A DNA stretch of 14,521 nt from a virus (taxonomy: Duplodnaviria > Heunggongvirae > Uroviricota > Caudoviricetes): positions 1 to 14,521 of the IMG/VR virus record IMGVR_UViG_2563366855_000007, one strand, 5' to 3'. Positions 1-14,521 of this stretch are shown one piece after another. The stretch's first letter is position 1. The number at the start of each line of letters is the position of its first letter. The notes beneath the pieces were generated by a model. The model was not told where the DNA came from. It did no database searches and worked only from the letters and a program-made list of their open reading frames with translations. Position numbers and translations under genes: made by a program.

Positions 1-411
1 TCAGTTCCTATCCTTCCAGTTGCCTTCCTGCAGCCCCCCCTCCCTGCTGTATACCCCGGTACCACAACGCGGGCAGCACTTTTCTCCTTCATAATCTTCG
101 TCACACATCACACAAAACCACTTTCTCACCTTCACCGTATAATCCGGAACCGTCATACCCTGCAGATGCAAACGACGGGCCTCTTTCTCTGCCGGGTCAA
201 GCCAGGTGCATCGCAGCAGGATTTTCTCAGCGACAGTCATCTGGTCATGTTCAAACCACGGTGGTTGTCCGTCATTGCCCCGCTGAAGTGTTAACGGGCA
301 TCCACAGGACACACAGCACAAAACGTCCTGGCGGTTGTGCTTCGCTGCTTCTTTCGCCGTAACAAAATGGCCTTTGCTGTCATTCGCCATATAACAGTTC
401 AGAATTCGCAT
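1..411 (-). CDS. Zinc-ribbon protein, paralog A (about 136 aa), function unknown
   Basis: ATG at 409-411 preceded by AGGAGG Shine-Dalgarno; TGA stop at 1-3. Several CxxC pairs and a PWFEH motif shared with the neighbouring ORF 399..800. The longer track ORF (to 498) has no RBS. Confidence 0.55.
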   Translation of the reverse strand: MRILNCYMANDSKGHFVTAKEAAKHNRQDVLCCVSCGCPLTLQRGNDGQPPWFEHDQMTVAEKILLRCTWLDPAEKEARRLHLQGMTVPDYTVKVRKWFCVMCDEDYEGEKCCPRCGTGVYSREGGLQEGNWKDRN

Positions 412-800
412 ATTTCCTCCTGAGTTGTCCGGGGAATACTGAATCCTCCGGTCTGGCAGTGTGTGCAGTACCGCTCCCCATAATAATCGTGGTGACATTG
501 TCTGCAGTGCCAGCTGGCTTTACGCACCACGGGTAAGGCATCCGGTACGAATTGCTGCAGACGTTTAATCAACTGTATTTCTCTGCGCTCCGGCCTGACA
601 TAAGGGCACTGTTGACCGTGCTCTGTCAGCCTGTCGTCAGTGTGTTCAAACCAGGGAAGTTCAGTGTCGTATTGCGGATGGTATCTGAGTGCACTGCCAC
701 ACAAGTGGCAGGTGTAGTGAGCATAAGGTGCGGCCTGTACAGTACGGGCGCCCGTCAGACGTCCGTTGCTATCAAGAGCGAGAAAGGATTTTGCGTACAT
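399..800 (-). CDS. Zinc-ribbon protein, paralog B (133 aa), function unknown
   Basis: ATG at 798-800 with AAGGAA-like SD; stop at 399-401 overlaps the start of paralog A by 13 nt (coupled). Shares PWFEH and the W-x-C-x2-C ... Y-x-G-E ... C-x2-C-x-T-G layout with paralog A. Confidence 0.55.
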   Translation of the reverse strand: MYAKSFLALDSNGRLTGARTVQAAPYAHYTCHLCGSALRYHPQYDTELPWFEHTDDRLTEHGQQCPYVRPERREIQLIKRLQQFVPDALPVVRKASWHCRQCHHDYYGERYCTHCQTGGFSIPRTTQEEICEF

Positions 801-965
801 AGTATATGTTCCTTACCGTCAGACGACACGCAGGCAACAGCCGTCCCGGTACGGGCAGCGTGGTCAGGTGTGAATGGCGGTTTCAGTTCAGTCTCATAAG
901 GGAAAATCAGTGTGGTGGCCATGAACACGTCATCACACTGAAGTCAGATAACTCGTCTGTCTGGC

Positions 966-1535
966 TCAGCCACGACTGCAGCCAAAGTTGCGCTCATCGG
1001 TGCAGTGAGCTTTGGTATGCTCCTTCGCCAGATAGTCAGCACGTTCCAGCACTTGCTGAAAGCCGGTGTCATCATTACGCGCCAGCCACACCGCCGGCCA
1101 GGCCGGAAAATGCACCAGCGTGGCATGGCATCCGGCATCCACCCCCAGGGCACTGCACCAGGCCTGTTCAATCATTCCGGCCAGTGATCCCGGAGCGCGG
1201 TAATCACCGGCACGACACCAGGTATCCCGGTTGACCAGCAGCATCAGATGATAGTGTTTTTTACCTTTGCACTCCCCAAACTCCCGGGCCCAGACGTAAT
1301 GCAGAGTGGTGGGATGCACGCGTTTACCTTCCCGATGCTTACGTTTCTGGTAAGCGTCGATTCGGGCTTTCAGGGCATTGATGAAGCGGGATATCACAGC
1401 TGCGTCCGTTGCTGCCGGTACATCCGGGAAACGCAGGTCAACCCGCAATGCCGTCAGGCGGGGATGAACATTCAGTGCGTGCCGCACTGTCTCACGAATA
1501 CGTTGCTGCCAGAAGGGGTTGTATTTGTAGGTCAT
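966..1535 (-). CDS. YfjJ/YagK-like (inovirus Gp2 family) protein
   Basis: ATG at 1533-1535 with GGAGAT SD 6 nt upstream (the track start at 1571 is a GTG without RBS). N-terminal YKYNPFWQQRI and RVDLRFP motifs recalled from the YagK/YfjJ family of E. coli cryptic prophage islands. Confidence 0.65.
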   Translation of the reverse strand: MTYKYNPFWQQRIRETVRHALNVHPRLTALRVDLRFPDVPAATDAAVISRFINALKARIDAYQKRKHREGKRVHPTTLHYVWAREFGECKGKKHYHLMLLVNRDTWCRAGDYRAPGSLAGMIEQAWCSALGVDAGCHATLVHFPAWPAVWLARNDDTGFQQVLERADYLAKEHTKAHCTDERNFGCSRG

Positions 1536-1667
1536 GGTTAAATCTCCGTATGGTTCATACGGAATAGCCACGTCGTAAAAAATGCGCAGAGTCCCTGAAG
1601 TGACCTCCGGCAGGGCACTGTCTCAGGCACTCTGTGATAACCCGAACGGTCGTCTCCGGACTGACGG

Positions 1668-1696
1668 TTGAATTTTCAGCGTTGTTTTTTTAATGT
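1668..1696 (+). promoter_or_regulatory. Sigma70-like promoter for the small zinc-ribbon gene
   Basis: TTGAAT (1668-1673), 17-nt spacer, TAATGT (1691-1696); about 40 nt upstream of ATG 1735. Confidence 0.4.
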
Positions 1697-1734
1697 AAAA
1701 AACCGGTTACGGGTAAGGCTGTGAGGAGGGAGTG

Positions 1735-1935
1735 ATGGTGATACGCAAAAAGAAGTGCAGGGACTGTGGAAACGCGATTACTCATAATACAGTGTGTTGC
1801 CCGTATTGTGGTTCTGTCGACCCCTTCGGCTATTACCGGAATACAGACCGTATCGTTACCATACTGCTGGCACTGATTATTGTGGTCCTGCTGACTACTG
1901 TCAGCGTCAGTGTGTATATACTGTGTAGCTGGTGA
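1735..1935 (+). CDS. Small zinc-ribbon membrane protein (66 aa)
   Basis: ATG 1735 with GAGGAGGG SD at 1723-1730. N-terminal C-x2-C ... C-x2-C zinc ribbon (CRDCGN...CPYCGS) followed by one hydrophobic helix (IVTILLALIIVVLLTTVSVSVYIL). Confidence 0.55.
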   Translation: MVIRKKKCRDCGNAITHNTVCCPYCGSVDPFGYYRNTDRIVTILLALIIVVLLTTVSVSVYILCSW

Positions 1936-2265
1936 GATAACGGTTCATGTATCCCCTGAGCTGACAGTGTACCGGGTATATTAAGCGTAACCGACAGGTT
2001 CTCCTTCATACCATATTAAATTTTTCCAGGTATTGCCGCTGCCTTATTTCGTCCCATACAGGAAAACTCGTCTGGGTTTCTGACAAATACGCGAAACTCA
2101 CAGCCCCTCAATATCAACCACACGCCGTAAGCCGGTAATACCTGATCAGACATGAGATAAATGAAGGGGGATCCGTGAGATAAATAACGAATTGGAGTGG
2201 GTTAACATGGGTTCTGGTGAACAGAACTGAAATTCTTTTCCGCTATACGATAGATAAGTCGGGCA

Positions 2266-2295
2266 TTGAAATCATCCTTCCTGGCAACTTAGAAT
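2266..2295 (+). promoter_or_regulatory. Sigma70-like promoter upstream of the 53-aa ORF
   Basis: TTGAAA (2266-2271), 18-nt spacer, TAGAAT (2290-2295). Confidence 0.35.
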
Positions 2296-2338
2296 CGAGT
2301 TTGCTGAAACATGACCCGCAACAAAAAGGATGATTCCA

Positions 2339-2500
2339 ATGACTACTCAAAACAATAAGCATGATAGCCTGGATTACTCAGAAAAGCCCAAAAGCAAGCA
2401 CATCGTGACGTTCGAGCGCGATTCCGGTAGAAAAGGAGAATCGTCTTCCTCTGCCAATAAAACCACTATGCCGGCAGCCCCTGCCCCAGGGAAAAAATAA
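2339..2500 (+). CDS. Hypothetical small hydrophilic protein (53 aa; below the ORF-track size cutoff)
   Basis: ATG 2339 with AAGGA 8 nt upstream, TAA at 2498-2500, candidate promoter upstream. Product MTTQNNKHDSLDYSEKPKSKHIVTFERDSGRKGESSSSANKTTMPAAPAPGKK is low-complexity; an in-frame alternative ATG lies at 2330. Confidence 0.25.
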   Translation: MTTQNNKHDSLDYSEKPKSKHIVTFERDSGRKGESSSSANKTTMPAAPAPGKK

Positions 2501-2503
2501 ACA

Positions 2504-3136
2504 TCATTCATCGTTCGTTGCACGAACGCGCCTGATCTCCACTCTGGCAATCTGATCTGCTGGAATATAGGTTGCCAGAGCTCCCCAGTACTTATCAACC
2601 ACGCCTTTATACTCTTCCCATTCGTTACTGCCTGAAGGGCTGCTGTGCGTGACGTAAAGAACCATATCGCCTTTATTCCCCTGGGTAAACGGACCGTTAG
2701 GCCACTCTTCAAAGTTCCCTGGCAGCCGTGACATCATACCGGAACCATCGCGAAGAATCACTCTGACCTCGGTAACGCTGAAGCCTGTTTGATCAAACAT
2801 TGCCTGCCATGCTGAGCTGGTATCGTCAGACCATGAAATATCATTATTCCACAGTAATCTGTACATCCATTTGCGACCGTACCTGCGCCACCACGCACCG
2901 CATGTAACGGCACACAGAAGTGCTGGTGGTGTTGCCAGCCAGGCATTCAGACCTGCCCACATAACAGCCTGGTAAGCCATCATTGCTGTCAGGCCAAAAA
3001 TCAGCGAAGAAAAAGTCACCTCAATGGGCTTGTGGTGATCCTTCAGTCCCACATTCGCAATAAAATACCCAATATAGCCACTGGTCAGGGTCACCAGTGT
3101 TGCCCATGGCAGATTTAACAACGAAACGTCAAACAT
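2504..3136 (-). CDS. Membrane protein: three predicted N-terminal TM helices plus about 125-aa soluble C-terminal domain; function unknown
   Basis: ATG at 3134-3136 with GGGAGA SD (alternative ATG at 3151 has poor spacing; track start 3214 is TTG). Hydrophobic segments LPWATLVTLTSGYIGYFIANV, VTFSSLIFGLTAMMAYQAVMWA, WLATPPALLCAVTCGAWW. Confidence 0.6.
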   Translation of the reverse strand: MFDVSLLNLPWATLVTLTSGYIGYFIANVGLKDHHKPIEVTFSSLIFGLTAMMAYQAVMWAGLNAWLATPPALLCAVTCGAWWRRYGRKWMYRLLWNNDISWSDDTSSAWQAMFDQTGFSVTEVRVILRDGSGMMSRLPGNFEEWPNGPFTQGNKGDMVLYVTHSSPSGSNEWEEYKGVVDKYWGALATYIPADQIARVEIRRVRATNDE

Positions 3137-3173
3137 ATTTTCTCCCTGCATCCTGAATACTAAAGAGAGAGCA

Positions 3174-3209
3174 TAAAAAAAGCACGGTAAGGGGTCTACC
3201 GTGCTTTTA
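3174..3209 (-). terminator. Rho-independent terminator ending the Mor operon (possibly bidirectional)
   Basis: Perfect 10-bp stem (3180-3189 / 3197-3206) with 7-nt loop. On the minus strand it is followed by a run of six U; on the plus strand by a shorter T-run (tttt). Confidence 0.7.
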
Positions 3210-3250
3210 TACAATAAGGAGATTTTTGAAAGGACTTTAACAAGCAGGAA

Positions 3251-3649
3251 TTATCTGGATTTGTTAACGTCTTTCGTCTCCTCTGGCAGATCTTCATCAA
3301 ACAACCTGCCCTGCATCCGATCCAGTTCTTCTTTTCTGACCCGCTTAACCACGCTGTAGACCCACTGAAGCGAAACACCAAACTTGCGGGCCAGTTCGTG
3401 GTGGTTGCGTCCGTTAAACTCCCTGAAGATTTCCCGGTCGCGCTGACTGACCTTCCATACCATGCCCATCGGGAAATAAACGTTTTGCCCGCCCCAGACC
3501 TGCATCATTCGGTTCGCGACGGCCTGACCAATCTGGTCGGCAATTGCGGGCTCAATATCAATAATCTCGCGAACGGTCTCAGAGGTATGCTGTGCCAGCT
3601 CCACCAGGAGTTCCGGCCCTTTACTTCGAAACTGATTCAGGTCGCTCAT
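3251..3649 (-). CDS. mor: Mor-family transcriptional activator (Mu middle operon regulator homolog)
   Basis: ATG 3647-3649 with GGGAG SD. Motifs GGQNVYFP ... RDREIFREFNGRN ... LARKFGVSLQWVYSVVKR match the Mor/C family pattern recalled from Mu Mor. Confidence 0.85.
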   Translation of the reverse strand: MSDLNQFRSKGPELLVELAQHTSETVREIIDIEPAIADQIGQAVANRMMQVWGGQNVYFPMGMVWKVSQRDREIFREFNGRNHHELARKFGVSLQWVYSVVKRVRKEELDRMQGRLFDEDLPEETKDVNKSR

Positions 3650-4073
3650 GTTTGACTCCCGCAGCTCTGCGCTGCCACTTCTTCAGTTTCTCAATAACAC
3701 TGCTTGCCTGTTCAGTACTGAGCCAGCGCAGGGCGCTGATGCCCGTTTCCCGCTTGATCCACCGCGCTAATGCATTTTCTGAACGGTCACGAACAATGCC
3801 GGCAGCAGCCATTTCAAGCCATAGCGCACGGATTTTCCTGGACTGCGGATGGTTATCCAGCGGTAAACCGGAGCTGGCTTTTCCGGCAGGCTTAACGCGA
3901 AAGCCTTTCCTTTTCATGGATTCCAGCACGCAGTTTAGTTGTGTGGTATCCATTCCTTTGGTTGAGGCTTTACCGGTCAGCCCCTGTAACATCTGGCGGT
4001 AGGTGTCTTCATCCATACCCAGTTCATTACGGGCAATATGAATGAGCTGGATAAGACGTTGTTTAGTCATCAT
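3621..4073 (-). CDS. gemA: GemA-like protein (Mu gp16 family)
   Basis: ATG 4071-4073 with AAGGAG SD; 3' end overlaps the mor start by 29 nt. N-terminal RLIQLIHIARNELGMDEDTYRQMLQGLTGKAS resembles the gp16/GemA family. Confidence 0.78.
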   Translation of the reverse strand: MMTKQRLIQLIHIARNELGMDEDTYRQMLQGLTGKASTKGMDTTQLNCVLESMKRKGFRVKPAGKASSGLPLDNHPQSRKIRALWLEMAAAGIVRDRSENALARWIKRETGISALRWLSTEQASSVIEKLKKWQRRAAGVKHERPESVSK

Positions 4074-4278
4074 CGTTGCTCCTTTTACCTGCGCCACCGA
4101 TATAATCGACATATAAAGGAAGCGCCACAGGCCAGCACAGGAACATCACCGACCAGCTAATCCAGTAGCCGGCACCACTGTAACGTGAATAAAACCCTGA
4201 ACGGCGGTGCAGTTCAGCAGTACACCAACCGACAAAACAATACCAGAACAGGGCACATACAACAGATTCAGCCGTCAT
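4063..4278 (-). CDS. Small two-TM membrane protein (71 aa)
   Basis: ATG 4276-4278 with G-rich SD; overlaps the upstream ORF stop by 11 nt and the gemA start by 11 nt (coupled). The hydrophobic sequence MTAESVVCALFWYCFVGW ... WISWSVMFLCWPVALPLYV supports the two-TM call. Confidence 0.45.
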   Translation of the reverse strand: MTAESVVCALFWYCFVGWCTAELHRRSGFYSRYSGAGYWISWSVMFLCWPVALPLYVDYIGGAGKRSNDDD

Positions 4279-4498
4279 TCTGAATATCCCCCCAACTGAT
4301 ATGAATATTACGGGCAGCAATGACAGGGTCGTTATTCCACCATGCACCTGACATGTATTTTTCAACCTGTTCGCGTCCGGCAATAACACCAATTGTGATC
4401 CCCGGCCTGACGTTCTTAAAAAAGGCGCGGGCAAAAAGGTATCTGGCAGATATTCGGCAGGCTTTTAATTTCCGGCTGTTACCTGATAGCGTAATCAT
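4268..4498 (-). CDS. Hypothetical protein (76 aa)
   Basis: ATG 4496-4498 with GGAGG SD; ATGA stop/start overlap with the upstream gene. Confidence 0.45.
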   Translation of the reverse strand: MITLSGNSRKLKACRISARYLFARAFFKNVRPGITIGVIAGREQVEKYMSGAWWNNDPVIAARNIHISWGDIQNDG

Positions 4499-5178
4499 CT
4501 GGCCTCCAGTTTCTGTTGTTCCTGCCCACTGACCGGGCGGTGCAGTCTGACGTTCTGCCCTTCAAGAAACCCCGCATAGCGCGAGGCGTCGCCATTGCGG
4601 CTTCTTCCCGGTTTACGCGCCCTGGTGGTTTGCGTCTGCGGGTATTTATGTTCCAGCCACTGCTGCATCAGTTCACGTTCGTCATCGGTCAGGGCGAAGG
4701 ACTGTATTTCACTGATAACGGCCAGCACCCAGCCTTCAGCAAACTGGTCACCACGGCTGGTACGGGTGGCAGTTTTTATTCTTTTGTTCTGTGCGCTGAT
4801 ATATTGCTGACGCGCCTTTTTCAGCTGGCGGGCCAGCACTTCCCAGGTGTACGCAGCCAGTGCAGCCCGTTCCCGGTTGCCGTAGAACCCCACACCCGGA
4901 TATGTGCCGGGGTGAATGATGGAGTTAACACCAAATGCCTCGCGGATGATGTTCATCAGGCCCAGCATGTAGCGCGGTGGACGGAGGCTGCCTGTCGGCC
5001 AGTAGTGACTGATGGTTTCATCAATATCACTCATGGCGATGTCGGAATGTGTGATGCCGTGAACATCCATCAGTTTACGGGCACGGCGCAGTGCCAGAGC
5101 GGCCTCGTGAGGGTTGCCGGATGCGGCCAGCGCCAGCAACTTTTTCAGTTTCTCAATGTGTTTATCCTGGTCTGTCAT
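4495..5178 (-). CDS. DUF2786-like protein (227 aa)
   Basis: ATG 5176-5178 with GGAGAT SD; ATGA overlap with the upstream gene. N-terminal KLKKLLALAASGNPHEAALALRRARKLM resembles the DUF2786 signature (from memory). Confidence 0.6.
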   Translation of the reverse strand: MTDQDKHIEKLKKLLALAASGNPHEAALALRRARKLMDVHGITHSDIAMSDIDETISHYWPTGSLRPPRYMLGLMNIIREAFGVNSIIHPGTYPGVGFYGNRERAALAAYTWEVLARQLKKARQQYISAQNKRIKTATRTSRGDQFAEGWVLAVISEIQSFALTDDERELMQQWLEHKYPQTQTTRARKPGRSRNGDASRYAGFLEGQNVRLHRPVSGQEQQKLEAR

Positions 5179-5480
5179 TGTTCAGTATCTCCGGTGTACA
5201 TGACGCCCAGCCGTGCGGCAAGGCGTTCCAGTTTTTTCTGTTTGTGGAAGTCAATCAGCCGGTCCATTCCCTGAAGGCGCAGTTGCTCTGTCATGATTTC
5301 CACGTCTGCCAGCTCTGCCGCGAGGTCACTTTCGCTGCCCTGTCCGTTCAGATTGCGGGCAGCACTGGCCGCCAGTTCAGCGGCCTCTTCTGTCAGTTTC
5401 AGGGCCTGTGCGTCCGGCCCGAAACGCTGCAGGGCCAGACGGTAGAGGGCGGTGCGGGTGAGTATGGTGTTCCGTGTCAT
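5175..5480 (-). CDS. MazG-like nucleotide pyrophosphohydrolase family protein (101 aa)
   Basis: ATG 5478-5480. EEAAELA ... AAELADVEIM acidic helix pair is typical of the all-alpha MazG-like NTP-PPase fold. Confidence 0.55.
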   Translation of the reverse strand: MTRNTILTRTALYRLALQRFGPDAQALKLTEEAAELAASAARNLNGQGSESDLAAELADVEIMTEQLRLQGMDRLIDFHKQKKLERLAARLGVMYTGDTEQ

Positions 5481-5489
5481 GCCGCGCCC

Positions 5490-5762
5490 TCAGTGCTTCC
5501 GGCTGACGGTGATGTGCAGGCCGCCTTCTGCAGTGGTTTCCATCCGGTACGGCACCTCATGCTCTGCCGTGTGGGTGAGTGTGTTCACCAGTACCTGCAG
5601 GGCAGCCGCCTTTCCGTTGGTCGCCACAATGGCCTGAGCGGTCATGCTGATTAGCGCCGTCAGGACGTGCTTCACATCGGTGAGGTCGCGGCATTCACAC
5701 TCGTTGACATAGTGTTCAACAAGGGTTCGGGTGCGCTGTCGTGCTTCCTGTGGGGTAATCAT
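5490..5762 (-). CDS. Hypothetical protein (90 aa)
   Basis: ATG 5760-5762 with GGGAGGA SD; ATGA overlap with the upstream zinc-ribbon ORF. Confidence 0.5.
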   Translation of the reverse strand: MITPQEARQRTRTLVEHYVNECECRDLTDVKHVLTALISMTAQAIVATNGKAAALQVLVNTLTHTAEHEVPYRMETTAEGGLHITVSRKH

Positions 5763-5953
5763 TGCGAGTCCTCCCTGTCAGGGCGGGAGAATTCCATGAC
5801 GGGCACGTCTGCCGAAAAATGCTGGCTGCAGTACGGGCAGACCAGGGTGACGCGTACCGCAGGGATGTGGTATTTACCGGACATCACGGCGATGGCGCTG
5901 TGAAAACGCAGGGCTGTTATATCCCTCTCGCACTGAATACATTTAAATATCAT
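5759..5953 (-). CDS. Small zinc-ribbon protein (64 aa)
   Basis: ATG 5951-5953 with GAGGAGA SD 8 nt upstream. C-x2-C (CIQC) ... C-x2-C (CPYC) arrangement. Confidence 0.5.
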   Translation of the reverse strand: MIFKCIQCERDITALRFHSAIAVMSGKYHIPAVRVTLVCPYCSQHFSADVPVMEFSRPDREDSQ

Positions 5954-6050
5954 GATTTAATTCTCCTCTGTTTCCGGCGTGCAGAAGCCCGCGGCGCTGA
6001 CGTCGGAATAAAAAAGAAAATGTTTTTATTAAATAATTAACGTGGTGTGT

Positions 6051-6581
6051 TTACTGCACATCCTGCTCAAAAGGAATTATTGAAAAATCCTCAATGTCGC
6101 TTTTAATGGAAATACCGGGAATATTTTTCACGGCCTCTTTTTCATTCAGGATAGCGTCTTTATTTATTTCCTCTTTTACACGAATAAAGCGCTCAAGCCC
6201 CAGACGTCTCAGTAATTCAATAACATTATCCGCCCCACGGATACTGACTGATGGCGGACGGTTTCGCCACTGCACCTCGCCGGTGGTGAGGTTAGCGAAC
6301 TTCACCTTCCCGTTGCCGGTCAGTTCATCACGGTGTGCCTCACACCATGTCTGAATACCGGACTGCAGTTCGGCCATGCGTTTTTTCAGGCTCTCGGTGA
6401 GCGGGGCATAACGTGCGGTGATATCGCCAATGGCGTCATTCATTTCTGTTTCAGCCCTGACCAGTTCACGTTGTGCGTCACCGAGTAGTCTGATTCCCTC
6501 AATGACCTCTTCACGTGTCCCCGGCACCCAGAGTGCTGCTGCGGCCTTGATACGTTTTGCACCTTTTGTACTTTTTGCCAT
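6051..6581 (-). CDS. gam: Gam (Mu-type host-nuclease inhibitor, DNA-end binding) homolog
   Basis: ATG 6579-6581 with GGAGAAA SD. MAK..KRIK.AAA..VP ... ETEMNDAI ... WCEA.RDELT..GKVK.ANL.TG.V.WR.RPPSVSIRG ... GL.RF.R.K.EINK.AIL ... SIIPFEQ matches Mu Gam as recalled, near full length. Confidence 0.9.
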   Translation of the reverse strand: MAKSTKGAKRIKAAAALWVPGTREEVIEGIRLLGDAQRELVRAETEMNDAIGDITARYAPLTESLKKRMAELQSGIQTWCEAHRDELTGNGKVKFANLTTGEVQWRNRPPSVSIRGADNVIELLRRLGLERFIRVKEEINKDAILNEKEAVKNIPGISIKSDIEDFSIIPFEQDVQ

Positions 6582-6608
6582 TTTTTATGATTTCTCCAGT
6601 TGTGCTGA

Positions 6609-6878
6609 TTACCACAAAGATTCCGGCCACACGACGCGACAGCCGTGCAGTTCGAAAACGCCCTGACGGAAATATCCCCTGTGGTCATGTCCGGTATACA
6701 GATAACAGGCCTTTCCCTGCTCAAGCATGCGCATGCAATGCGCACTCCGGGAAACGCGGATGACAGGTTTGTTACCCCTGATGGTGATGCTTTGTACATC
6801 CGTGTTCGTCGCCTTAAGCGCCATAATGGCTGACTGCACTTTGCTGATTTGCTGGTTGATACCTGTGGTGGATTTCAT
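6609..6878 (-). CDS. Hypothetical protein (89 aa) in the position occupied by kil in Mu
   Basis: ATG 6876-6878 with AAAGGGG SD, 3 nt downstream of the B-like stop. No recognisable motif; the kil analogy is positional only. Confidence 0.45.
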   Translation of the reverse strand: MKSTTGINQQISKVQSAIMALKATNTDVQSITIRGNKPVIRVSRSAHCMRMLEQGKACYLYTGHDHRGYFRQGVFELHGCRVVWPESLW

Positions 6879-6880
6879 TA

Positions 6881-8047
6881 TTAAACCCCTTTGACAACGT
6901 CAGCGTTGACCTGTGGAACCCCGATTTCAGCGGCCAGATTCATGGCGGCTATTACCAGGTTACTGACGGCCAGCGGATACAGCAGGCTGACCATATTTTT
7001 ACGGTGACTTCCCGGATTGCTCAGGCGGGCACGTATGGCATCCACTGCACCGGCGTCCATAATGTCCGTCAGCTGTTTACCGGCCCGTTGCAGTTTGAAC
7101 GTCAGAAATTCTTCAAGGTTATTGTCCAGAGGCAGAAGTTCGACCACCTCACAGCGCTGAACGACTTCACGGACTTCCATATTGCGTTCAGACAGTTTTG
7201 TCGCCAGTTCCGGCTGGCCAATCAGCACGATGGACAGCAGTTTTTTGAAACCGGACTCCAGCTCAAAAAAGCGTTTGAGGTGTTTCAGTGTCGGAATGGG
7301 CAGACTGTGGGCCTCCTCAATCACCAGAACGTGGCTGAACCCCGCCTGGCTGCTGTCTTTCAGGACGCGATGCAACTGGCGAAAACGGGCGTCCTGACTG
7401 CGTCTGATGCTTTCCAGTGGTGCGATGGTACTGATAATGGCTTCGGCAATAGCTGCTGCCTTCAGGGTTTTCCCTTTCACATCGTTGTCTTCCATAGCGA
7501 TGATGTATGGCTCGATAACAATTACCGGCGCATTCTCGCGGTTGATACGTTCAGTCAGGTCGCGGCGCAGCGTGGATTTACCCGCACCGGACTCACCGAT
7601 GACGGCCATAAACCCACCATGACGGGCTGTCTGGTACAGCGCCTCACGCACGTAGCGAATGTCCGGGGTGGTGAACACATCATCAGAACCCTGCATGGCT
7701 TCGTCGGCGAACGGGTCACGGAAAAGACCAAACGCTTTTTTGGTTGCTGGAAATAACACCTGTTTTTTGAGTAACATATTCTCTTCCTCACTGAGGCTCG
7801 TTTTATCTGTGGTACCCGCTGTACGGGGCGTGGCCGCGCCCTGTACAGCATCAAAACTCTTCGTTGTATCAATCCCCTGACTTTCCAGCCAGGACGCAAG
7901 ACGCCGGCGCACTTCTCCGGGGCTGGTGCGGGGCCACGCGTTATGATTCACAATCTGGGCCAGCGTGGCCTCAGAAACATCGACAGCTCTCGCCACCACC
8001 GCCTGTGGAATACGGGCCTCTTTCAGTTGCTGCTTCAGTACCAGCAT
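6881..8047 (-). CDS. Transposition ATPase, MuB-like (AAA+ with N-terminal HTH)
   Basis: ATG 8045-8047 with GAGGAGGG SD that spans the A-like stop (track start 8086 is GTG with no SD). Walker A GESGAGKS, Walker B-like VLVIEEAH, N-terminal HTH (VSEATLAQIVN). Confidence 0.8.
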   Translation of the reverse strand: MLVLKQQLKEARIPQAVVARAVDVSEATLAQIVNHNAWPRTSPGEVRRRLASWLESQGIDTTKSFDAVQGAATPRTAGTTDKTSLSEEENMLLKKQVLFPATKKAFGLFRDPFADEAMQGSDDVFTTPDIRYVREALYQTARHGGFMAVIGESGAGKSTLRRDLTERINRENAPVIVIEPYIIAMEDNDVKGKTLKAAAIAEAIISTIAPLESIRRSQDARFRQLHRVLKDSSQAGFSHVLVIEEAHSLPIPTLKHLKRFFELESGFKKLLSIVLIGQPELATKLSERNMEVREVVQRCEVVELLPLDNNLEEFLTFKLQRAGKQLTDIMDAGAVDAIRARLSNPGSHRKNMVSLLYPLAVSNLVIAAMNLAAEIGVPQVNADVVKGV

Positions 8048-8057
8048 GTTTCCCTCC

Positions 8058-9827
8058 TCAGTTGCCGTTAACAATGCTGATAACACTGCTGCGGGCCGGT
8101 GTGGTCAGCGTGGCCATGACTTCATCCAGTGCGGCTTCCGGTACGCCGTCCGGGTACTGTGCCGTTAACTGGCGGTAATGTTCCGGCGTCCAGGTAAGGC
8201 CGTCGGCGCTGAACTTATCGCGCAGGGCTTTCGCGGCCTCCACATGAGTCATGGGACGTTGTTCAGTGCGCGGCCCGCGTACGTCAGAGGCCTGACCACG
8301 CTTCGGCATATAGGCCGGAAGTGTGGTGTCGTCGATATGTTTATACGGGTCAAGCCGCCCGCCGAACGGCAGCGCCTTCGCCTTGCGTGCGGCGGCTGCA
8401 TCTGCGGCGTTGTCTGTACCGGTAACCAGCGCTTCGGTTTCTTTTGCCGCCATCTGTGCCGGGGTTTCCGGCAGGGCTTTGTAACTTTCGCCAAATACCG
8501 CCGCGCCTTCAGCAAAGCCAAACTCGTTCTTTCTGACCTCTTCGACCAGGAAGAACGTCTCGTGGCCGTCCTCACCGGTCAGAACCACCTGTGCCACATC
8601 GCTGCGCCATGGGTTACGGGTAATCATCAGTTTTTCACCAACCAGTACGCCCGGTACCGTTGATACGTCAAATTCAGTGCCCCGGAACGAGACACGAAGT
8701 TTTGGCGTGACTTTGCGGAGTTCTGGTGCCGCCACAGCCAGTTCACGACATACCTCAACGGAAGGCGCTTTTTTCAGCTGCTCAGCAGTAATCTTCAGCC
8801 AGATATCCGTGCGGGTTTTACCGTGGCGGCTGTGAACAGCCGTGGCGTTAAAGTGGCTGCGCCATTTCGCGGCCAGCGCGTTGAGTTCTTCCAGACTGTG
8901 AACCGGCCGGAACTTCAGACCCGGCTCCAGCTTGCGTTCGATAATGTCACGCGCCTTTTCCACCTGTCCGGTGGCGCGGGCGTTATGCGGCTTGTGCGCT
9001 ATCAGGTCGATGCCCAGTGAGCGGCACATGTTTTTCGTCATACCCGCGGTGTTTGCCGAGCCGGGGTCGAGATAGAGTATTTTCGGCACGCCGTGCAGCA
9101 CGTCTGCGCCGCCACGCTCCTGCATGGCGTTGATAAGCACAGAACACAGGTTCTCACCTGATTCCGCGCCCGTCACATACTCAACGTAAATCCAGCCGCT
9201 GGCATGGTCGGTAATCTCGTAACTCCACACGCGGTCACTGGCGATACGGGCAAGGTTAGCGGGCTTGTTCTTGTAGAACTTCGCGCTGTCCATCACCTGC
9301 AGCCCTTTATGTCCATTGCTCAGGTAGTAAAGCGTGCAGAGTGAGGCGTCAATCTGCCAGACATGATTGGGATGCAGACTGGCCACTTCGGTATGTGGTG
9401 CAGGGGCATCCAGTTGTTCCGGGTGCAGGCCATAGTTACGCAGAGCACGGCTGATGGCATCTTCAGACAACGGGAAAAACTCACTGGTGGTTTCATCTGT
9501 TCTGCCTGCGGTGATAAAGCCGTTAGCCCGCAGGGTTTCCACTGCATCTGCGATGGAATAGAGACGCTTACCGTTCTTGCGGGTGGCCTCACGCAGTGTG
9601 GCAGATATCAGCGCGGCTTCGTCGCGGGTCAGGGCGCTGCGCCCGGCATCGGCGCGTTTTTTGCGTTTATCAGTCACAGATACCTCCTTCAGCCTGCGCA
9701 GCAGAGTGGCGCGGGACATGCCAAGTTCAGCACAGGCAGCGTCGTATACTGCGCCGCGTTTACCATGCCCCGCGTCACGTGCCGCGCGGGCGACATAAAC
9801 CAGTCGTTCAGTCAGGGCAGCATTCAT
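8058..9827 (-). CDS. DDE transposase, MuA-like (rve/integrase core; 589 aa)
   Basis: ATG 9825-9827 with GGAGG SD. Catalytic triad candidates D in HVWQIDAS, D in LYLDPGSANT, E in GQVEKARDIIERK; N-terminal HTH. Sits directly upstream of the AAA+ partner as in Mu A-B. Confidence 0.85.
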   Translation of the reverse strand: MNAALTERLVYVARAARDAGHGKRGAVYDAACAELGMSRATLLRRLKEVSVTDKRKKRADAGRSALTRDEAALISATLREATRKNGKRLYSIADAVETLRANGFITAGRTDETTSEFFPLSEDAISRALRNYGLHPEQLDAPAPHTEVASLHPNHVWQIDASLCTLYYLSNGHKGLQVMDSAKFYKNKPANLARIASDRVWSYEITDHASGWIYVEYVTGAESGENLCSVLINAMQERGGADVLHGVPKILYLDPGSANTAGMTKNMCRSLGIDLIAHKPHNARATGQVEKARDIIERKLEPGLKFRPVHSLEELNALAAKWRSHFNATAVHSRHGKTRTDIWLKITAEQLKKAPSVEVCRELAVAAPELRKVTPKLRVSFRGTEFDVSTVPGVLVGEKLMITRNPWRSDVAQVVLTGEDGHETFFLVEEVRKNEFGFAEGAAVFGESYKALPETPAQMAAKETEALVTGTDNAADAAAARKAKALPFGGRLDPYKHIDDTTLPAYMPKRGQASDVRGPRTEQRPMTHVEAAKALRDKFSADGLTWTPEHYRQLTAQYPDGVPEAALDEVMATLTTPARSSVISIVNGN

Positions 9828-9830
9828 TGG

Positions 9831-10742
9831 TTATGCCTCCAGCCCGTTAATCTGTGGCGTCGACTCAGTCAGCCATGAAGGCGCTGCATTGCCTGTTGGC
9901 TCGTCCGGCAGGTCAAATGTGGAGCGCAGGCTACGCGCTGTGCTTTCCAGTTGACAGACCAGGCCTGCCATGAAGTCTCTGGGGGTATCAATCATGTTTT
10001 CAGCACAATATGCGCACAGCGTCTCAAAAGCGCTGGACAGTCGGACGGCGATGGCAGATTCCGCCTCAACCGCTAATGCTGTTACTTCCGCCCGCAGCTT
10101 CTTAACCTCCTCATCAGGCTCAGGTGGCTGAATACGGGATTTCTTCTCCAGTCTGGTGGAGAGTGAGTCTATTTTTTCATTTTTGTCGGCGAGTACGCGC
10201 TGTTGTGCTGCGTTGGTTTCGCGCGCTTCGCGCAGGGCCTGACGCAATTCACGTACTGACATGCGATCAACATCGTCAAGCGTCAGTCCGGCAACTGTGC
10301 CACCGTCGGCCAGTTCAGCAAGGTCGTCGTCATCTTCAGCAACAAGTTCAAATAATTTTGCCTTACCTAAAAGCGACAACGTTGTCGCTTTTGGCTCTAG
10401 TTTTGGTGAAAGGTATTTCAAAGATGCTTTCATCATTCGTTGTGCTGCGCGCACATGCAGACCAAGTTGTTCTTCTACAATTCCAACAAAGTCCCCGTGA
10501 GGTTCATTTTCTTTGAGAATAATAAGTCGTTTACCTGCTTCCAGCATGGCCTCAGCGCTCTGTGCCATATAAAACCGAGCCTCATGAACTATGCGATCAC
10601 GCTCATAGGGCTGACCATCGCCAAACTGCTGCATGATCTCCATACGATGCTGTGTCATGGCGTTCAGACTGACATTGAGATCATCCGACAGCGGTACCTC
10701 GGCGTTCAGTTCAGTGTTAATCGGTGATTTGGTGCGTCCCAT
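9831..10742 (-). CDS. DUF3102-like protein (303 aa) with acidic linker and coiled-coil
   Basis: ATG 10740-10742 with AAGGAG SD; stop 3 nt before the A-like start. IVHEARFYMAQSAEAMLEAGKRLIILKENEPHGDFVGIVEEQLGLHVRAAQRMM resembles the DUF3102 core (from memory). Confidence 0.55.
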   Translation of the reverse strand: MGRTKSPINTELNAEVPLSDDLNVSLNAMTQHRMEIMQQFGDGQPYERDRIVHEARFYMAQSAEAMLEAGKRLIILKENEPHGDFVGIVEEQLGLHVRAAQRMMKASLKYLSPKLEPKATTLSLLGKAKLFELVAEDDDDLAELADGGTVAGLTLDDVDRMSVRELRQALREARETNAAQQRVLADKNEKIDSLSTRLEKKSRIQPPEPDEEVKKLRAEVTALAVEAESAIAVRLSSAFETLCAYCAENMIDTPRDFMAGLVCQLESTARSLRSTFDLPDEPTGNAAPSWLTESTPQINGLEA

Positions 10743-10752
10743 TTATTACTCC

Positions 10753-11061
10753 TTACAAACGACTACCTGAAATGACACGTTGGTTGATTTCGTTAATGCG
10801 ATCCTGTGCACGTGCCATCTCGTTACTGTGGGCCATAGCGATCTGCAGTAACTGGATGCCCGGCGCGAAACGCCCGTTTTCCAGTTTCAGGGCCAACCCT
10901 TCTTCAATGAGGGTGTTGAGTGCCCGGTTGATGTTTGCCGGTGACTCGTGCAGTGCTGCCGCCAGTTCACCGTTGGAAATACCGTTCAGGGCATGACCGC
11001 GCAGCGCTTTGAGTACCCGGAGGATGCGACTGCCGGAGCTTGAAACATTCGTCTTACTCAT
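10753..11061 (-). CDS. Winged-helix (IclR/MarR-like) DNA-binding regulator (102 aa)
   Basis: Second ATG (11059-11061) has AAGAGG SD at good spacing; the first ATG (11067) is 1 nt from the SD. ILRVLKAL ... GISNGELAAALHESPANINRALNTLIEEGL is a classic wHTH pattern. Confidence 0.55.
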   Translation of the reverse strand: MSKTNVSSSGSRILRVLKALRGHALNGISNGELAAALHESPANINRALNTLIEEGLALKLENGRFAPGIQLLQIAMAHSNEMARAQDRINEINQRVISGSRL

Positions 11062-11113
11062 CTGCATACCTCTTTTGCGATATGTGATAACCTTTTACAA
11101 AGACTCAAAATCT

Positions 11114-11302
11114 TCAGGCTGCCTGAGCTGTTGATTTCAGCCCCAACTTCACGGCGATTTCATGGGATTTACCGTAACGGGCTTTGGTCTGCCCATTGAG
11201 AACGCGGTATACCTCATTGCGGTTGTAGCCGTTTTCTTCTGCCCAGCGGGTGAAAGTGATCCCGCGCTGGCGGAAGAGAGCTTTGACTTGTTCTGCAGTC
11301 AT
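11114..11302 (-). CDS. ner: Ner/Nlp-like small DNA-binding regulator (62 aa)
   Basis: First gene after the early promoter; ATG 11300-11302 with AAGGAG SD. Pattern RQRGITFTRWAEENGY ... GKSHEIAVKLG parallels the Ner/Nlp fold; the assignment is by position and pattern. Confidence 0.55.
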   Translation of the reverse strand: MTAEQVKALFRQRGITFTRWAEENGYNRNEVYRVLNGQTKARYGKSHEIAVKLGLKSTAQAA

Positions 11303-11349
11303 CGTTGTCTCCTTTGTTGATGCAATGATGTTTGCCTTATGTGTGATAG

Positions 11350-11378
11350 ATTATGGTGCAGATTACCTCACCAGTCAA
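11350..11378 (-). promoter_or_regulatory. Early promoter (Pe-like) in the divergent repressor/ner switch region
   Basis: On the minus strand TTGACT (plus 11373-11378), 17-nt spacer, CATAAT (plus 11350-11355), about 45 nt upstream of the ner-like ATG. The spacer contains TGCAGATTACC and a nearby AGATTA repeat, candidate operator sites. Confidence 0.55.
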
Positions 11379-11402
11379 CTTAAAGAGTGCAGAAAAACTC
11401 AC

Positions 11403-11741
11403 ATGATCGGGTTACGTATTAAAGAAGAAAGAGAGCGTCTATCTCTTACACAGCAAGGGTTGGCTGATGCTATAGGTGTGGCAAAGAGAACTTTCATTGA
11501 TTGGGAAAAAGATCGCACTTCTCCTACTGCAGTGCAGTTATCTGCACTATCAGAAATCGGTGTAGATATTTTGTATGTAGTTACTGGGGTGCGGAGTCAG
11601 CCTGTTGTTGCACCTTATGTGTCACAAGAAAAGAAAGAGTTAATGGATGCATTCGACGAAATGAGCCCCGAACAACGGAGGGCAATTCTTGAGGTCGGCA
11701 AAGTCTTCATTCAACCCAAACCAAGCAAACTCGCAGGCTGA
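11403..11741 (+). CDS. XRE-family (Cro/CI-type HTH) repressor, divergent from the early operon
   Basis: ATG 11403 opens directly on the HTH (LSLTQQGLADAIGVAKRTFIDWEKDRTSPT); weak RBS. The track ORF from 11250 begins with GTG and would run through the early promoter. Confidence 0.65.
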   Translation: MIGLRIKEERERLSLTQQGLADAIGVAKRTFIDWEKDRTSPTAVQLSALSEIGVDILYVVTGVRSQPVVAPYVSQEKKELMDAFDEMSPEQRRAILEVGKVFIQPKPSKLAG

Positions 11742-11827
11742 TTTTGACCTGGACACAAAGGACAGGTGGTTGATCTGGATGCTTTCAGAAAACATCGCCA
11801 GTGACATAGTGGAAGTTGTTTGGTTTA

Positions 11828-11859
11828 CCGGAAAGCATTGTGCTTTCCGGTTTTGTTTC
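11828..11859 (+). terminator. Rho-independent terminator downstream of the repressor gene
   Basis: Perfect 10-bp stem CCGGAAAGCA / TGCTTTCCGG (11828-11837 / 11841-11850), 3-nt loop, then TTTTGTTTC. Confidence 0.75.
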
Positions 11860-12622
11860 AGAAGTTGCAGATTACCAGTTCACGGCGCGGCGTGGATTTC
11901 CCCGCCAGACTGTAGTTGATGTTCACTGTCTGTATGTTCAGTCCAGTGAACACCTCGCGCATCTGTGGGATATCGTTCACCGAAATTATCATTTTTCCTC
12001 TGATGCACCGGGCCAGCTCTGCCAGCCGCGAGTAGTTCCCTTCAGGAAAATCCACACCATAGCCTTCCGTACCCAGGTACGGTGGGTCGCAGTAGAACAG
12101 TGTGTGCGGACGATCATAACGCTCAATGCACTGTTGCCAGTCCATGTGTTCTATGACTGTTCTGGAAAGCCGCAGGTGTGCTGCTGACAGTTCTTCTTCA
12201 ATACGCAGCAGGTTGAAGCGTGGCGGGGATGTGGTGGAGGTACCGAAGCTGTGCTCTGCCACCTTGCCGCCAAACGCCTGCTTCTGAAGGTAGTAGAACC
12301 GTGCCGCACGCTGGATATCCGTCAGTGTTTCTTCCGGGGTGATCTGCAGCCATTTGTAGATCTGACGGCTGACCAGCGCCCATTTGAACTGGCGGACAAA
12401 TTCTTCCAGGTGATGCTTTACCACCCGGTACAGATTCACCAGTTCACCGTTGATATCATTGATGACTTCGATCTTGCCGGGTGTCTTAAGAAAATAGAGC
12501 GCTGCTGCCCCACAAAACGGCTCCACATAACATTCATGCGCCGGAAACAGCGGCAGGATGTGTTTTGCCAGGCGACGTTTGCCACCAATCCATGGAACGA
12601 TGGGTAATGTCTTCATTTTCAT
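11858..12622 (-). CDS. Dam-family (D12 class) DNA N6-adenine methyltransferase, orphan
   Basis: ATG 12620-12622. N-terminal PWIGGKRRL, motif I EPFCGAAALYF, catalytic DPPY, C-terminal RRELVICNF. No adjacent restriction endonuclease candidate. Confidence 0.88.
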   Translation of the reverse strand: MKMKTLPIVPWIGGKRRLAKHILPLFPAHECYVEPFCGAAALYFLKTPGKIEVINDINGELVNLYRVVKHHLEEFVRQFKWALVSRQIYKWLQITPEETLTDIQRAARFYYLQKQAFGGKVAEHSFGTSTTSPPRFNLLRIEEELSAAHLRLSRTVIEHMDWQQCIERYDRPHTLFYCDPPYLGTEGYGVDFPEGNYSRLAELARCIRGKMIISVNDIPQMREVFTGLNIQTVNINYSLAGKSTPRRELVICNF

Positions 12623-12663
12623 AATCTGTAAGCCTTTTACAATTATTAAAAATATGGCAGGCT

Positions 12664-12770
12664 AGTCTGGTCTCGCGAGACTGACTGAACCTCGGTCGGC
12701 TCACAGCCACTTCTGTGGGACGATGGCCAGCCCGGTGGGTCCGAAGCACCGGGCTGGTCGTTCTTTCATG
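12664..12770. promoter_or_regulatory. Structured non-coding region upstream of the Dam-like gene: 12-bp perfect palindrome plus GC-rich hairpin
   Basis: GTCTCGCGAGAC at 12670-12681 flanked by AGTC/GACT; 11-bp perfect stem CCAGCCCGGTG / CACCGGGCTGG (12727-12737 / 12747-12757) with 9-nt loop, followed on the plus strand by TCGTTCTTTC. Confidence 0.35.
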
Positions 12771-12813
12771 ATGCGGCAGGGATAGTGGGATTTCTGTTAA
12801 TGTGGTTTAGGGA

Positions 12814-13029
12814 TTATCCGGGGCGATTTTCTGACCTTATCCGGTCCAGGGCATAAGTAATACCTTCTGCAAAAACAGAAGTATCAAACTGCTTTTGTAT
12901 TCCCTGAAAATGAAAAGCGGCACGACAGACACTCAGTTCTCCGCGATGTAACCGGATAATATCTTCCAGAACATTGTTCACTGCTTCAGCACGGCGCTGA
13001 TGTTCTGTTAACGTTAATCGGGGATTCAT
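12814..13029 (-). CDS. Hypothetical protein (71 aa)
   Basis: ATG 13027-13029 with AAGGAG SD 6 nt upstream; no recognisable domain. Confidence 0.4.
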   Translation of the reverse strand: MNPRLTLTEHQRRAEAVNNVLEDIIRLHRGELSVCRAAFHFQGIQKQFDTSVFAEGITYALDRIRSENRPG

Positions 13030-13432
13030 GATGCACTCCTTAAATGATGATTTTTATGCACTCACCGGCAAAATATTCTGCCGATTACTGAACACGCATC
13101 CGGCACCTCAGGTTTTGATTTATTCTGGTTTTTTCGATATCCCGGACCAGGTTGATCACGACCAGAAAAAGTGCCGGTATTTTATTGATACGCTGATATG
13201 GCTTCGGGATAACAGCTATATTCGTTACTCTCAGTTGCTGGCTGTGGGAGCGGCTGATGTCGTCCTCACGGAAAAAACGCTCCGTCTGCTCAATGCCACG
13301 CCGACCCTTCTGCAGCCCCGGCCCGCACCATTTAAAGAGTCACTTCTGGATGCAGTAAAAACCGGTGAAAATGCAGTCATCGCTGAATGCGTATCCCGGA
13401 TTATGCGTTACGTGTTTAATGAACGTAAGTGA
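13028..13432 (+). CDS. Hypothetical protein (about 134 aa)
   Basis: ATG 13028 or 13031 with a weak GGGGA SD. The start overlaps the divergent 71-aa ORF start and the 3' end overlaps the P-loop gene by 25 nt, so it may not be real. Confidence 0.3.
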   Translation: MMHSLNDDFYALTGKIFCRLLNTHPAPQVLIYSGFFDIPDQVDHDQKKCRYFIDTLIWLRDNSYIRYSQLLAVGAADVVLTEKTLRLLNATPTLLQPRPAPFKESLLDAVKTGENAVIAECVSRIMRYVFNERK

Positions 13433-14151: not shown

Positions 14152-14281
14152 ATCGTATTCTCCTCTGTGAATAATTCATCGTTTATCCTGCACATCCCGT
14201 ATCCCCGGCTCTCTTAACGCGCTTTAAAATCCTTCGCGCCCTGTATTTGTGATGCTGTCTCCACCAGACAAGGAGACACAC

Positions 14282-14521
14282 ATGAAAAACCTGAAAAAAT
14301 TCATTCCCCCTGTTAAAAAACCTCGCCTCAGCGGCTGGCTGCTGACCTCAGTGCTGTTGCTGGGCACCATCGCTCTGGTCTCGCCACAGCAGTTGCCTGT
14401 TGTGATCTACAAGCTGGCACTCATCACGCTGGCAGCAGTGCTGGGTTACTGGCTTGACCGTTCGCTCTTCCCCAAAGCCCGTCCCGGTCAGTACCTGAAA
14501 CATGACGACAGGCTGATGGCT
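14282..14521 (+). CDS. Membrane protein, 3'-truncated at window end (at least 80 aa)
   Basis: ATG 14282 with AGGAGA SD 5 nt upstream; no stop before the window end. Basic N-terminus then two hydrophobic segments (LSGWLLTSVLLLGTIALV, VVIYKLALITLAAVLGYWL). Confidence 0.55.
   Translation, partial: MKNLKKFIPPVKKPRLSGWLLTSVLLLGTIALVSPQQLPVVIYKLALITLAAVLGYWLDRSLFPKARPGQYLKHDDRLMA

Follow-up and report, generated by a model that had tools for sequence, protein, structure and literature searches.

The region 1668–2500 of a 14,521-nt viral window spans a host-island/prophage junction and the left end of a BcepMu/B3-type transposable prophage with an optional two-gene module

The window analysed here is the whole 14,521-nt stretch of the IMG/VR virus record IMGVR_UViG_2563366855_000007 (Caudoviricetes), and the region under study within it is positions 1668–2500. 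An earlier note had described this region as one AT-rich "cargo" stretch. Comparison with related genomes indicates instead that it straddles an insertion junction at 2142|2143 and joins parts of two unrelated mobile elements, not a single cargo unit. The left part belongs to a host genomic island, while 2143–14521 is, by its gene content and termini, the left arm of a BcepMu/B3-type transposable prophage. The complete interpretation, which combines the junction, the transposable-phage end, repeats that act as transposase sites, and an optional two-gene module with its mechanism, is considered highly probable. The region is indeed lower in GC than its surroundings, although only modestly so (45.0% over 1668–2500 compared with 52.5% over the whole window).

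The junction and the phage end are defined by three features.

2137..2142, no strand: predicted 6-bp target site AATACC, from the 6-bp duplications in 4/4 complete sister prophages and the uninterrupted site in strain Nissle 1917.
2143..2165, plus strand: left terminus, 5′-TG, with the first 23-bp unit L1 (TGATCAGACATGAGATAAATGAA; core TGAGATAAAT at 2153–2162), from comparison of seven insertions.
2166..2188, plus strand: second 23-bp unit L2 (GGGGGATCCGTGAGATAAATAAC; core TGAGATAAAT at 2176–2185), with the motif at positions 37–43 of both ends.

The two sides of the junction are distributed differently among bacterial genomes. Window 1560–2145 is 100% identical to a segment found in 3,572 of 5,426 complete E. 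coli genomes, frequently more than once per genome, and window 1–2145 is 99.95% identical to an island of Nissle 1917, which keeps the uninterrupted target GGTAATACC|TGAAAATC. Window 2140–3300 is covered to at least 80% in 118 genomes, with about 99.9% identity at the best places. The DNA to the left of these copies is always different, typically a truncated host gene (sfaA, rfaH, rstB, an amino-acid permease or a phosphatase). Alignment of seven junctions from independent insertions places the start of the common sequence exactly at TGATCAGACATGAGATAAAT (window 2143, TGATCAG), with none before it. These seven junctions show insertion at many unrelated chromosomal sites with interruption of genes, which is the behaviour of a transposable prophage. 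The description of the region as one cargo stretch does not survive this comparison.

The genes to the right of the junction identify the element. The minus strand encodes an rve transposase (589 aa), its AAA+ partner, Gam, GemA/gp16 and Mor, all transcribed leftward toward 2143. Matches to rve, AAA_22 and Mor were obtained from Pfam; Gam and gp16/GemA were assigned from the annotation of a sister prophage. A DDE transposase together with AAA+, Gam, GemA and Mor proteins is the gene set of a transposable prophage. By tblastn the transposase has 68% identity to the BcepMu enzyme and 57% to the enzyme of Pseudomonas phage B3; no Mu record appeared among the 30 tblastn transposase matches listed, and a PDB sequence search with the transposase returned no MuA chain. 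From 2143 to its end the window is 99.0% identical to the 37,701-bp complete prophage of strain ABU 83972 (NC_017631.1, 1804574–1842274), and from 3291 onward it is 96% identical to Escherichia phage PhiKM, classified in Bcepmuvirus. The core gene nearest to the left end is as follows.

3251..3649, minus strand: Mor-family late activator, final core gene of the leftward early operon (PF08765, E 1e-43).

Mor is also the last gene before the left end in BcepMu and PhiKM, and in the BcepMu/B3-type family the whole left arm is inverted relative to Mu (PMC3091646).

The termini agree with this assignment. All four complete sister prophages (4/4) have 5′-TG...CA-3′ ends, and all four are flanked by 6-bp direct duplications: ACAAAT, ACTTCC, CATTCC and GCTTTC. 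TG/CA termini are typical of BcepMu-related elements with Tn552-related transposases (PMC2628397), and transposases of the B3/Tn552 family leave a 6-bp duplication where Mu leaves 5 bp (PMC8705779). AATACC at 2137–2142 is accordingly predicted from its sisters to be the duplicated target of the window insertion; the right end of the prophage would then read ...GCGCATCA, followed by AATACC TGAAAATC. The last target base before the TG terminus is C in six of the seven insertions (the window and L003–L008). Across the seven targets (AATACC, ACTTCC, CATTCC, GCTTTC, ATATCC, GCTCGC and ACAAAT), the bases suggest a pyrimidine-rich 3′ half of the preferred target.

The direct repeat lies inside this terminus. 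TGAGATAAAT occurs exactly twice, at 2153–2162 and 2176–2185, 23 bp apart from start to start, and TGAGATAA is found again at 1933–1940; these positions had been given correctly before. Counted from the TG terminus, the two copies occupy positions 11–20 and 34–43. Read as its reverse complement, the phage's right end is TGATGCGCCGCGCGATAAATGCA|CTCTATCTTGTGCGATAAATGGC, with GATAAAT at positions 14–20 and 37–43. Seven diverged left ends (a second E. coli type, Klebsiella, two Salmonella, Citrobacter and two Serratia) all begin TGATCAG and keep two (T/G)(G/A)AGATA(A/T)(A/T)T cores 22–23 bp apart, with differing spacers between them. The PhiKM left end starts TGATTAG and has the same two cores 23 bp apart. 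In BcepMu, a phage of GC-rich Burkholderia, the left end is TGAAGAGAGGTGAGATATTTCCA|AGGGAGAACGCGCGATATTTCCG and the right end, in reverse complement, TGAAGCGCGGCGCGATATTTCAG|CACGTCGACGCGCGATAAATTCG; GATA(A/T)(A/T)T stands at positions 14–20 and 37–43 of both. Across the BcepMu-like family, the site core at these positions can be written G(A/C)GATA(A/T)(A/T)T. Candidate recognition sequences are thus repeated, in inverted orientation, at both ends of the element, as in transposable prophages generally. We infer that the two TGAGATAAAT copies are the cores of tandem terminal transposase-binding sites, because their distance from the TG terminus is fixed, the right end mirrors them and BcepMu has them at the same positions. 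The earlier idea of a regulator binding array was right in that the repeats are probably bound by a protein, but they are better read as terminal transposase sites, present at both ends and in BcepMu.

Several further observations concern the phage end.

2251..2259, plus strand: TAGATAAGT, a possible degenerate third site (weak), similar to the Klebsiella core TAGATAAAT and preserved in the second E. coli type (L010) and partly in a plasmid-borne end (L011).

Between the terminal repeats and the promoter described below, at 2210–2228, the plus strand has a terminator-like hairpin (GGTTCTGGTGAACAGAACT, then a weak T-run). GTTCTGGTGAA is kept in the Salmonella and Serratia ends, though not as a hairpin, and may bind a host factor or be one more transposase site. 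The TGATCAG terminus includes a GATC site (2144–2147) that every enterobacterial relative keeps, and a GGATCC lies in L2 (2170–2173). The phage encodes its own Dam methylase (11858–12622, minus strand), and its right end, TGATGCG, is without a terminal GATC; end usage may be methylation-dependent as in IS10/Tn5. An orphan related left end, about 88–90% identical and matching window 2152–2296, is present in about 196 E. coli records, which include many ColV-type plasmids. In plasmid p1ColV5155 (L011, NZ_CP005931.1) it occupies 2993–3145 and includes both TGAGATAAAT cores and the promoter region, with a different terminal 9 nt (TGCATCA...). This copy stops just past the −10 hexamer, without the small open reading frame (ORF), and adjoins LysR-gene fragments and insertion sequence (IS) elements.

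To the left of the junction, the host island contributes two features to the region.

1735..1935, plus strand: gene for a 66-aa protein with a zinc ribbon and a single transmembrane (TM) helix (WP_001297900.1, PGAP "hypothetical protein"), in the host island, outside the prophage.
1933..1940, plus strand: third TGAGATAA copy, in host DNA 203 bp outside the prophage end, overlapping the TGA stop of the 66-aa ORF.

The small plus-strand ORFs of 66 and 53 aa are both present as described, at 1735–1935 and 2339–2500, and a GTG at 1732 is an alternative start that would lengthen the 66-aa ORF to 67 aa. An identical 66-aa ORF occurs in Nissle 1917 (L002, 5176–5376), where the segment also holds an "inovirus Gp2 family" gene (YagK/YfjJ C-terminal domain) and two zinc-ribbon genes. 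Homologues are confined to E. coli, Shigella, Salmonella and Klebsiella, and are named only "hypothetical" or "zinc-ribbon domain-containing". The family conserves CxxC...CCPxC and GYYRNTDR, and its C-terminal TM helix is variable yet hydrophobic; zinc-ribbon profile matches are weak. The protein is probably a real small membrane protein of the island. No copy of the gene lies near yfjJ or yagK in the K-12 elements CP4-57 and CP4-6, therefore no K-12 gene name applies. A near-consensus promoter had been proposed for each of the two small genes. That description holds for the 53-aa gene (TTGAAA-18-TAGAAT, 10/12) but not for the 66-aa gene: nothing upstream of its ORF passes a consensus promoter scan, and the proposed TTGAAT-17-TAATGT has its −10 hexamer at 3/6.

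In its genomic distribution the 66-aa gene is a bystander without consistent linkage to the phage, because the island sits in thousands of genomes without an adjoining phage. TGAGATAA at 1933 is likewise to be read as a chance 8-mer and no longer as an array member, because the host-island DNA there is 100% conserved in genomes without the prophage. At the left edge of the window (1–800, minus strand), two adjacent paralogous zinc-ribbon genes stand upstream of the YagK/YfjJ-family gene of the island. One encodes a 133-aa protein (399–800) with DUF7828 and Zn_ribbon_11 matches; the other is a 165-aa ORF (1–498) annotated as "zinc-ribbon domain-containing protein" in Nissle.

The 53-aa gene lies on the phage side and is accompanied by its own expression signals.

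2339..2500, plus strand: gene for a 53-aa hydrophilic Pro/Ser-rich small protein (PGAP WP_001571575.1; phrog_15726), with orthologous convergent ORFs in relatives.
2266..2295, plus strand: sigma70-type promoter TTGAAA, 18-nt spacer, TAGAAT (10/12), the sole plus-strand promoter-like match in 1668–2500.
2264..2341, plus strand: inverted repeat with arms 2264–2279 and 2326–2341 (16 nt, 94% complementary), pairing the −35/spacer with the Shine–Dalgarno sequence (SD) and ATG.

Its conservation marks the 53-aa ORF as a genuine gene with a promoter of its own, under purifying selection. Conservation of the small ORFs in homologous loci had been named earlier as a test, and the 53-aa ORF is conserved there, with non-synonymous divergence (pN) far below synonymous divergence (pS). 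A Salmonella pair differs by 12 synonymous and 3 non-synonymous changes (pN 0.02, pS 0.38), and a Serratia pair has pN 0.23 and pS 0.69. Relatives keep the ORF, the SD spacing and the ATG despite saturation of synonymous sites, and every length difference is in frame. The peptides are hydrophilic and of low complexity, with an N-terminal (D/E)(Y/F)SE.PK and a PPAP/PSP...K(K/R) tail in common. A phmmer search against 1.84 billion representatives returned only five small relatives, plus spurious low-complexity matches in long proteins; fast evolution of the family explains why sequence searches find so few relatives. Both promoter hexamers, TTGAAA and TAGAAT, persist in the E. coli, Klebsiella, Salmonella, Citrobacter and Serratia ends, whose flanks diverge.

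The inverted repeat adds a possible layer of translational control. Over eight relatives, 85.6% of cells are paired, compared with 29–52% when the partner is slid, and there is one compensatory pair. The predicted RNA fold of a read-in transcript has −22.9 kcal/mol (z −2.5), while a transcript from about 2302, the start expected some 7 nt past TAGAAT, is predicted to be unstructured, with its SD free. One conserved arm lies upstream of the gene's own transcription start and the other over the SD/ATG, which is the arrangement of the IS10-type fold-back. These folding predictions point to a hairpin that would silence translation of transcripts read in from outside.

Facing the 53-aa gene is a membrane-protein gene, insulated from the early operon.

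2504..3136, minus strand: gene for a 210-aa membrane protein with three TM helices and a C-terminal beta domain (WP_000460689.1; phrog_12870), distantly DUF6338-related.
3178..3208, minus strand: intrinsic terminator, 13-bp stem and T-run, between Mor and the membrane gene, from the terminator scan and seven relatives.

The longest reading of the minus-strand membrane ORF is 2504–3214, and the PGAP start gives 2504–3136. As had been noted, the stops of the 53-aa ORF and of this gene are 3 nt apart with no terminator in between; the ORF list bears out the spacing, and the promoter/terminator scan detected no terminator-like site between the two stops. Given this convergence, an antisense overlap of the 53-aa transcript with the membrane-gene mRNA is likely. 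A hairpin with a T-run stands at the place of the 3178–3208 terminator in seven relatives (L010, L012, L015, L018, L019, L021 and L024), several of them with different stems, therefore the membrane gene appears insulated from the early operon. On the plus strand, this terminator could also stop an antisense transcript from the 53-aa promoter. The dyad within it (3182–3204) was considered as a Mor-binding site for a membrane-gene promoter and dropped, as no second copy is found in the window, late and lysis upstream regions included.

Homologues of the membrane protein form about 70 clusters in Enterobacterales and alphaproteobacteria. Its relation to Pfam DUF6338 (PF19865) is distant: 18 of 34 aligned members match weakly (best E 8.5e-6), and the window protein gives no match at E up to 1. 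The PHROGs families of both genes are function-unknown families.

The two genes tend to occur together. Of the 17 loci whose membrane gene is intact, 15 have a small ORF convergent with it, 40–66 aa long from the first ATG, and the two stops lie −4 to +18 nt apart. The enterobacterial loci among the 15 are from E. coli (L010), Klebsiella (L012–L014), Salmonella (L015 and L024), Citrobacter (L018), Serratia (L019 and L020) and Symbiopectobacterium (L021); the alphaproteobacterial ones are from Bradyrhizobium (L016, whose near-identical sister L017 was uncounted), Afipia (L025 and L028), a Rhizobiaceae metagenome-assembled genome (L026) and Devosia (L027). The only exceptions, lacking the small ORF, are two insect-symbiont loci and those where the membrane gene is broken. 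BcepMu and PhiKM are without both genes. On this pattern of presence and absence, the 53-aa gene and the membrane gene form a conserved optional module and are evolutionarily coupled, and a functional link between them is plausible. The earlier pairing of small genes with the membrane protein therefore stands for the 53-aa gene, coupled in 15 of 17 loci, but not for the 66-aa gene, which belongs to the host island.

The alphaproteobacterial loci have no Mor and adjoin integrase and resolvase fragments, therefore the pair travels independently of the phage. In the Bradyrhizobiaceae (Bradyrhizobium and Afipia; L016, L025, L028 and L030), the small ORF ends a short operon with a conserved 156-aa protein directly upstream, and an 89-aa resolvase-type helix–turn–helix (HTH) fragment stands before the membrane gene, with a tyrosine-integrase fragment nearby; the mobile-element context is thus another than that of the prophage. 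A distant-mode blastn search of the phage collection with 2143–3250 gave no match; the left-end module is missing from deposited phage genomes, therefore its relatives were drawn from bacterial genomes. In P. stutzeri, three Pro-rich proteins of <50 aa beside a DUF6338 gene have been detected by mass spectrometry (PMC10433244).

Other readings of the region have to be weighed against the one preferred here. The repeat might be a functionless chance duplication, and taken by itself it is statistically ordinary: an exact 10-mer is repeated within 40 nt in 34% of Markov-random windows of the same size, and at least two matches to TGAGATAAAT at up to 1 mismatch occur in 28/200 shuffles. Its reality rests on comparative evidence. 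Since both its position and its sequence are conserved in diverged phages including BcepMu, at both ends, chance can practically be discounted and is the least probable of the alternatives. Scarcely more credible is a single cargo cassette, in which a regulator would act on three TGAGATAA(AT) sites and both small genes would be set against a toxic or exclusion membrane protein. The repeats are exact, both small ORFs have an SD and point at the membrane gene, and the 53-aa ORF is coupled to it. The 66-aa ORF and the 1933 site are nonetheless host-island DNA of thousands of phage-free genomes, the phage end adjoins unrelated genes elsewhere, and the 66-aa ORF has no consensus promoter. The repeats could otherwise be operators through which a phage regulator (a repressor, a Ner-like protein or Mor) controls the inward 53-aa promoter. 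They lie 80–115 bp upstream of the conserved promoter at 2266–2295, and the phage encodes several HTH proteins. The proposal is somewhat more probable than a cassette but improbable all the same: the same arrangement, at an equal distance from the terminus, recurs at the right end; BcepMu and PhiKM also have it, although their ends carry neither the small ORF nor its promoter, whereas operators would be expected to be absent where the promoter is; and the sites begin 10 nt from the TG terminus, where transposases act.

For the 53-aa gene, the question is whether the promoter makes only an antisense RNA to the membrane-protein mRNA, the ORF itself being untranslated. The convergent arrangement, the 3-nt distance between the stops, the missing terminator, and a low-complexity peptide with few homologues would all suit such an RNA. 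Preservation of the ORF, SD, ATG and peptide motifs, the pN/pS values of both pairs, the in-frame length changes and the detected P. stutzeri proteins (PMC10433244) speak for translation, and the untranslated reading is given a small probability, marginally above that of the operators. An antisense role may exist in addition to the 53-aa protein. Several points weigh against the interpretation preferred here, in which transposase sites at a phage end are followed by an optional module. The right end and the target duplication fall outside the window and hence are not visible there; the repeats are assigned to the transposase solely from where they lie and how they are conserved; and the covariation of the hairpin is thin, with one compensatory pair, in arms that are also constrained by promoter, SD and ATG. 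The module proteins have no PADLOC, Pfam or NCBIfam matches and only weak fold matches (PADLOC-DB 2.0 was searched with the 66-, 53- and 210-aa proteins), and no convincing promoter was identified for the membrane gene.

The preferred reading can be put as a working model. Most likely, the 589-aa DDE transposase binds two units per end and pairs the left and right ends in a synaptic complex; integration cuts the target 6 bp apart, as the duplications of the sister prophages show. In the lysogen, the 53-aa gene would be expressed from its own promoter, and its transcript, lacking a terminator, would run on antisense through the membrane gene up to the hairpin. The small protein, the antisense transcription or both might restrain or partner the membrane protein. 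Read-in host transcripts would be kept untranslated by the −35/SD–ATG hairpin, following the IS10 fold-back logic. Exclusion, abortive infection and a toxin–antitoxin-like function are all possible roles of the module. A type I toxin–antitoxin system with a small hydrophobic toxin does not fit, as the small ORF is hydrophilic and the membrane protein has 210 aa with a folded C-terminal domain. A bolder version of the model is put forward only tentatively and is rather unlikely as a whole: a new self-contained accessory module, shielded by fold-back, in which the small protein or antisense RNA checks a membrane effector with an Sm-like cytoplasmic domain, with an exclusion, abortive-infection or toxin–antitoxin-like outcome, in enterobacterial prophages and alphaproteobacterial elements.

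Some observations on the relatives lie outside the window. At the right end of the ABU 83972 prophage (L009, 36692–37797), a Gin-like serine recombinase gene adjoins oppositely oriented tail-fibre fragments, and the gene order varies among strains (L034, L035 and L036), which suggests an invertible host-range segment as in Mu. The PhiKM record (L001, PQ738613.1, "partial genome") has apparent host DNA at 5430–5810, between the tail-fibre gene and the left end. The left end itself, TGATTAGACTTGAGATAAAT..., lies at about 5806, and the preceding DNA carries the annotation of an Fe2+ ABC transporter permease fragment. Apparently the record is a permuted assembly with some host flank in it.

The outcome is mainly corrective. 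A presumed regulatory array with two small genes becomes a junction with a standard transposable-phage end, and a false regulatory annotation is avoided. Exact end coordinates, site cores and the 6-bp duplication are now given for a BcepMu-like prophage family that occurs in 118 or more complete E. coli genomes, ABU 83972 among them, where genes such as sfaA, rfaH and rstB are interrupted. The region is mostly ordinary, a known kind of transposable-phage terminus with one modestly interesting uncharacterised module. That module is a concrete candidate for a role in lysogenic conversion or defence that can be put to the test, and it might offer a first clue to what DUF6338 does.

Among known systems, the closest are the phages of the BcepMu/B3 type. 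Shared features are an early arm directed toward the left end with Mor last (PMC3091646), TG...CA ends (PMC2628397, PMC8705779) and a 6-bp duplication (PMC8705779). With BcepMu in particular the element has in common two GATA(A/T)(A/T)T cores per end, at positions 14–20 and 37–43, and a transposase of 68% identity. Compared with BcepMu and PhiKM, the present E. coli lineage adds the two-gene module, about 1.1 kb with its terminator (~2260–3210), between Mor and the left sites, and its terminal 10 nt read TGATCAG... instead of the TGAAGAG... of BcepMu. Mu itself has the MuA sites L1–L3 and R1–R3 at its ends. The prophage shares with Mu directly repeated predicted recognition units beside the TG terminus, mirrored at the other end, but has two clear sites per end, not three, and a 6-bp duplication where Mu has 5 bp. 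The Tn552 transposase is said to footprint two adjacent 23-bp direct repeats per end, which would agree with the 23-bp period of the present repeat.

The module has fewer parallels. Known exclusion and defence families give no match, and the only published parallel found is the set of Pro-rich proteins beside a DUF6338 gene in P. stutzeri (PMC10433244). No described system pairs a DUF6338-related membrane protein with a convergent, disordered and Pro-rich small protein. The module resembles prophage morons as an optional gene set with its own promoter and terminator insulation from the core operon. In IS10 and IS50, a fold-back inverted repeat guards the element against read-through from outside promoters. 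The inverted repeat described here has the same layout, one arm upstream of the gene's own start and the other over the SD/ATG, but the putatively shielded gene is that of a 53-aa accessory protein at a prophage end, not of a transposase. Such protection would make sense, because the element lands in random transcription units.

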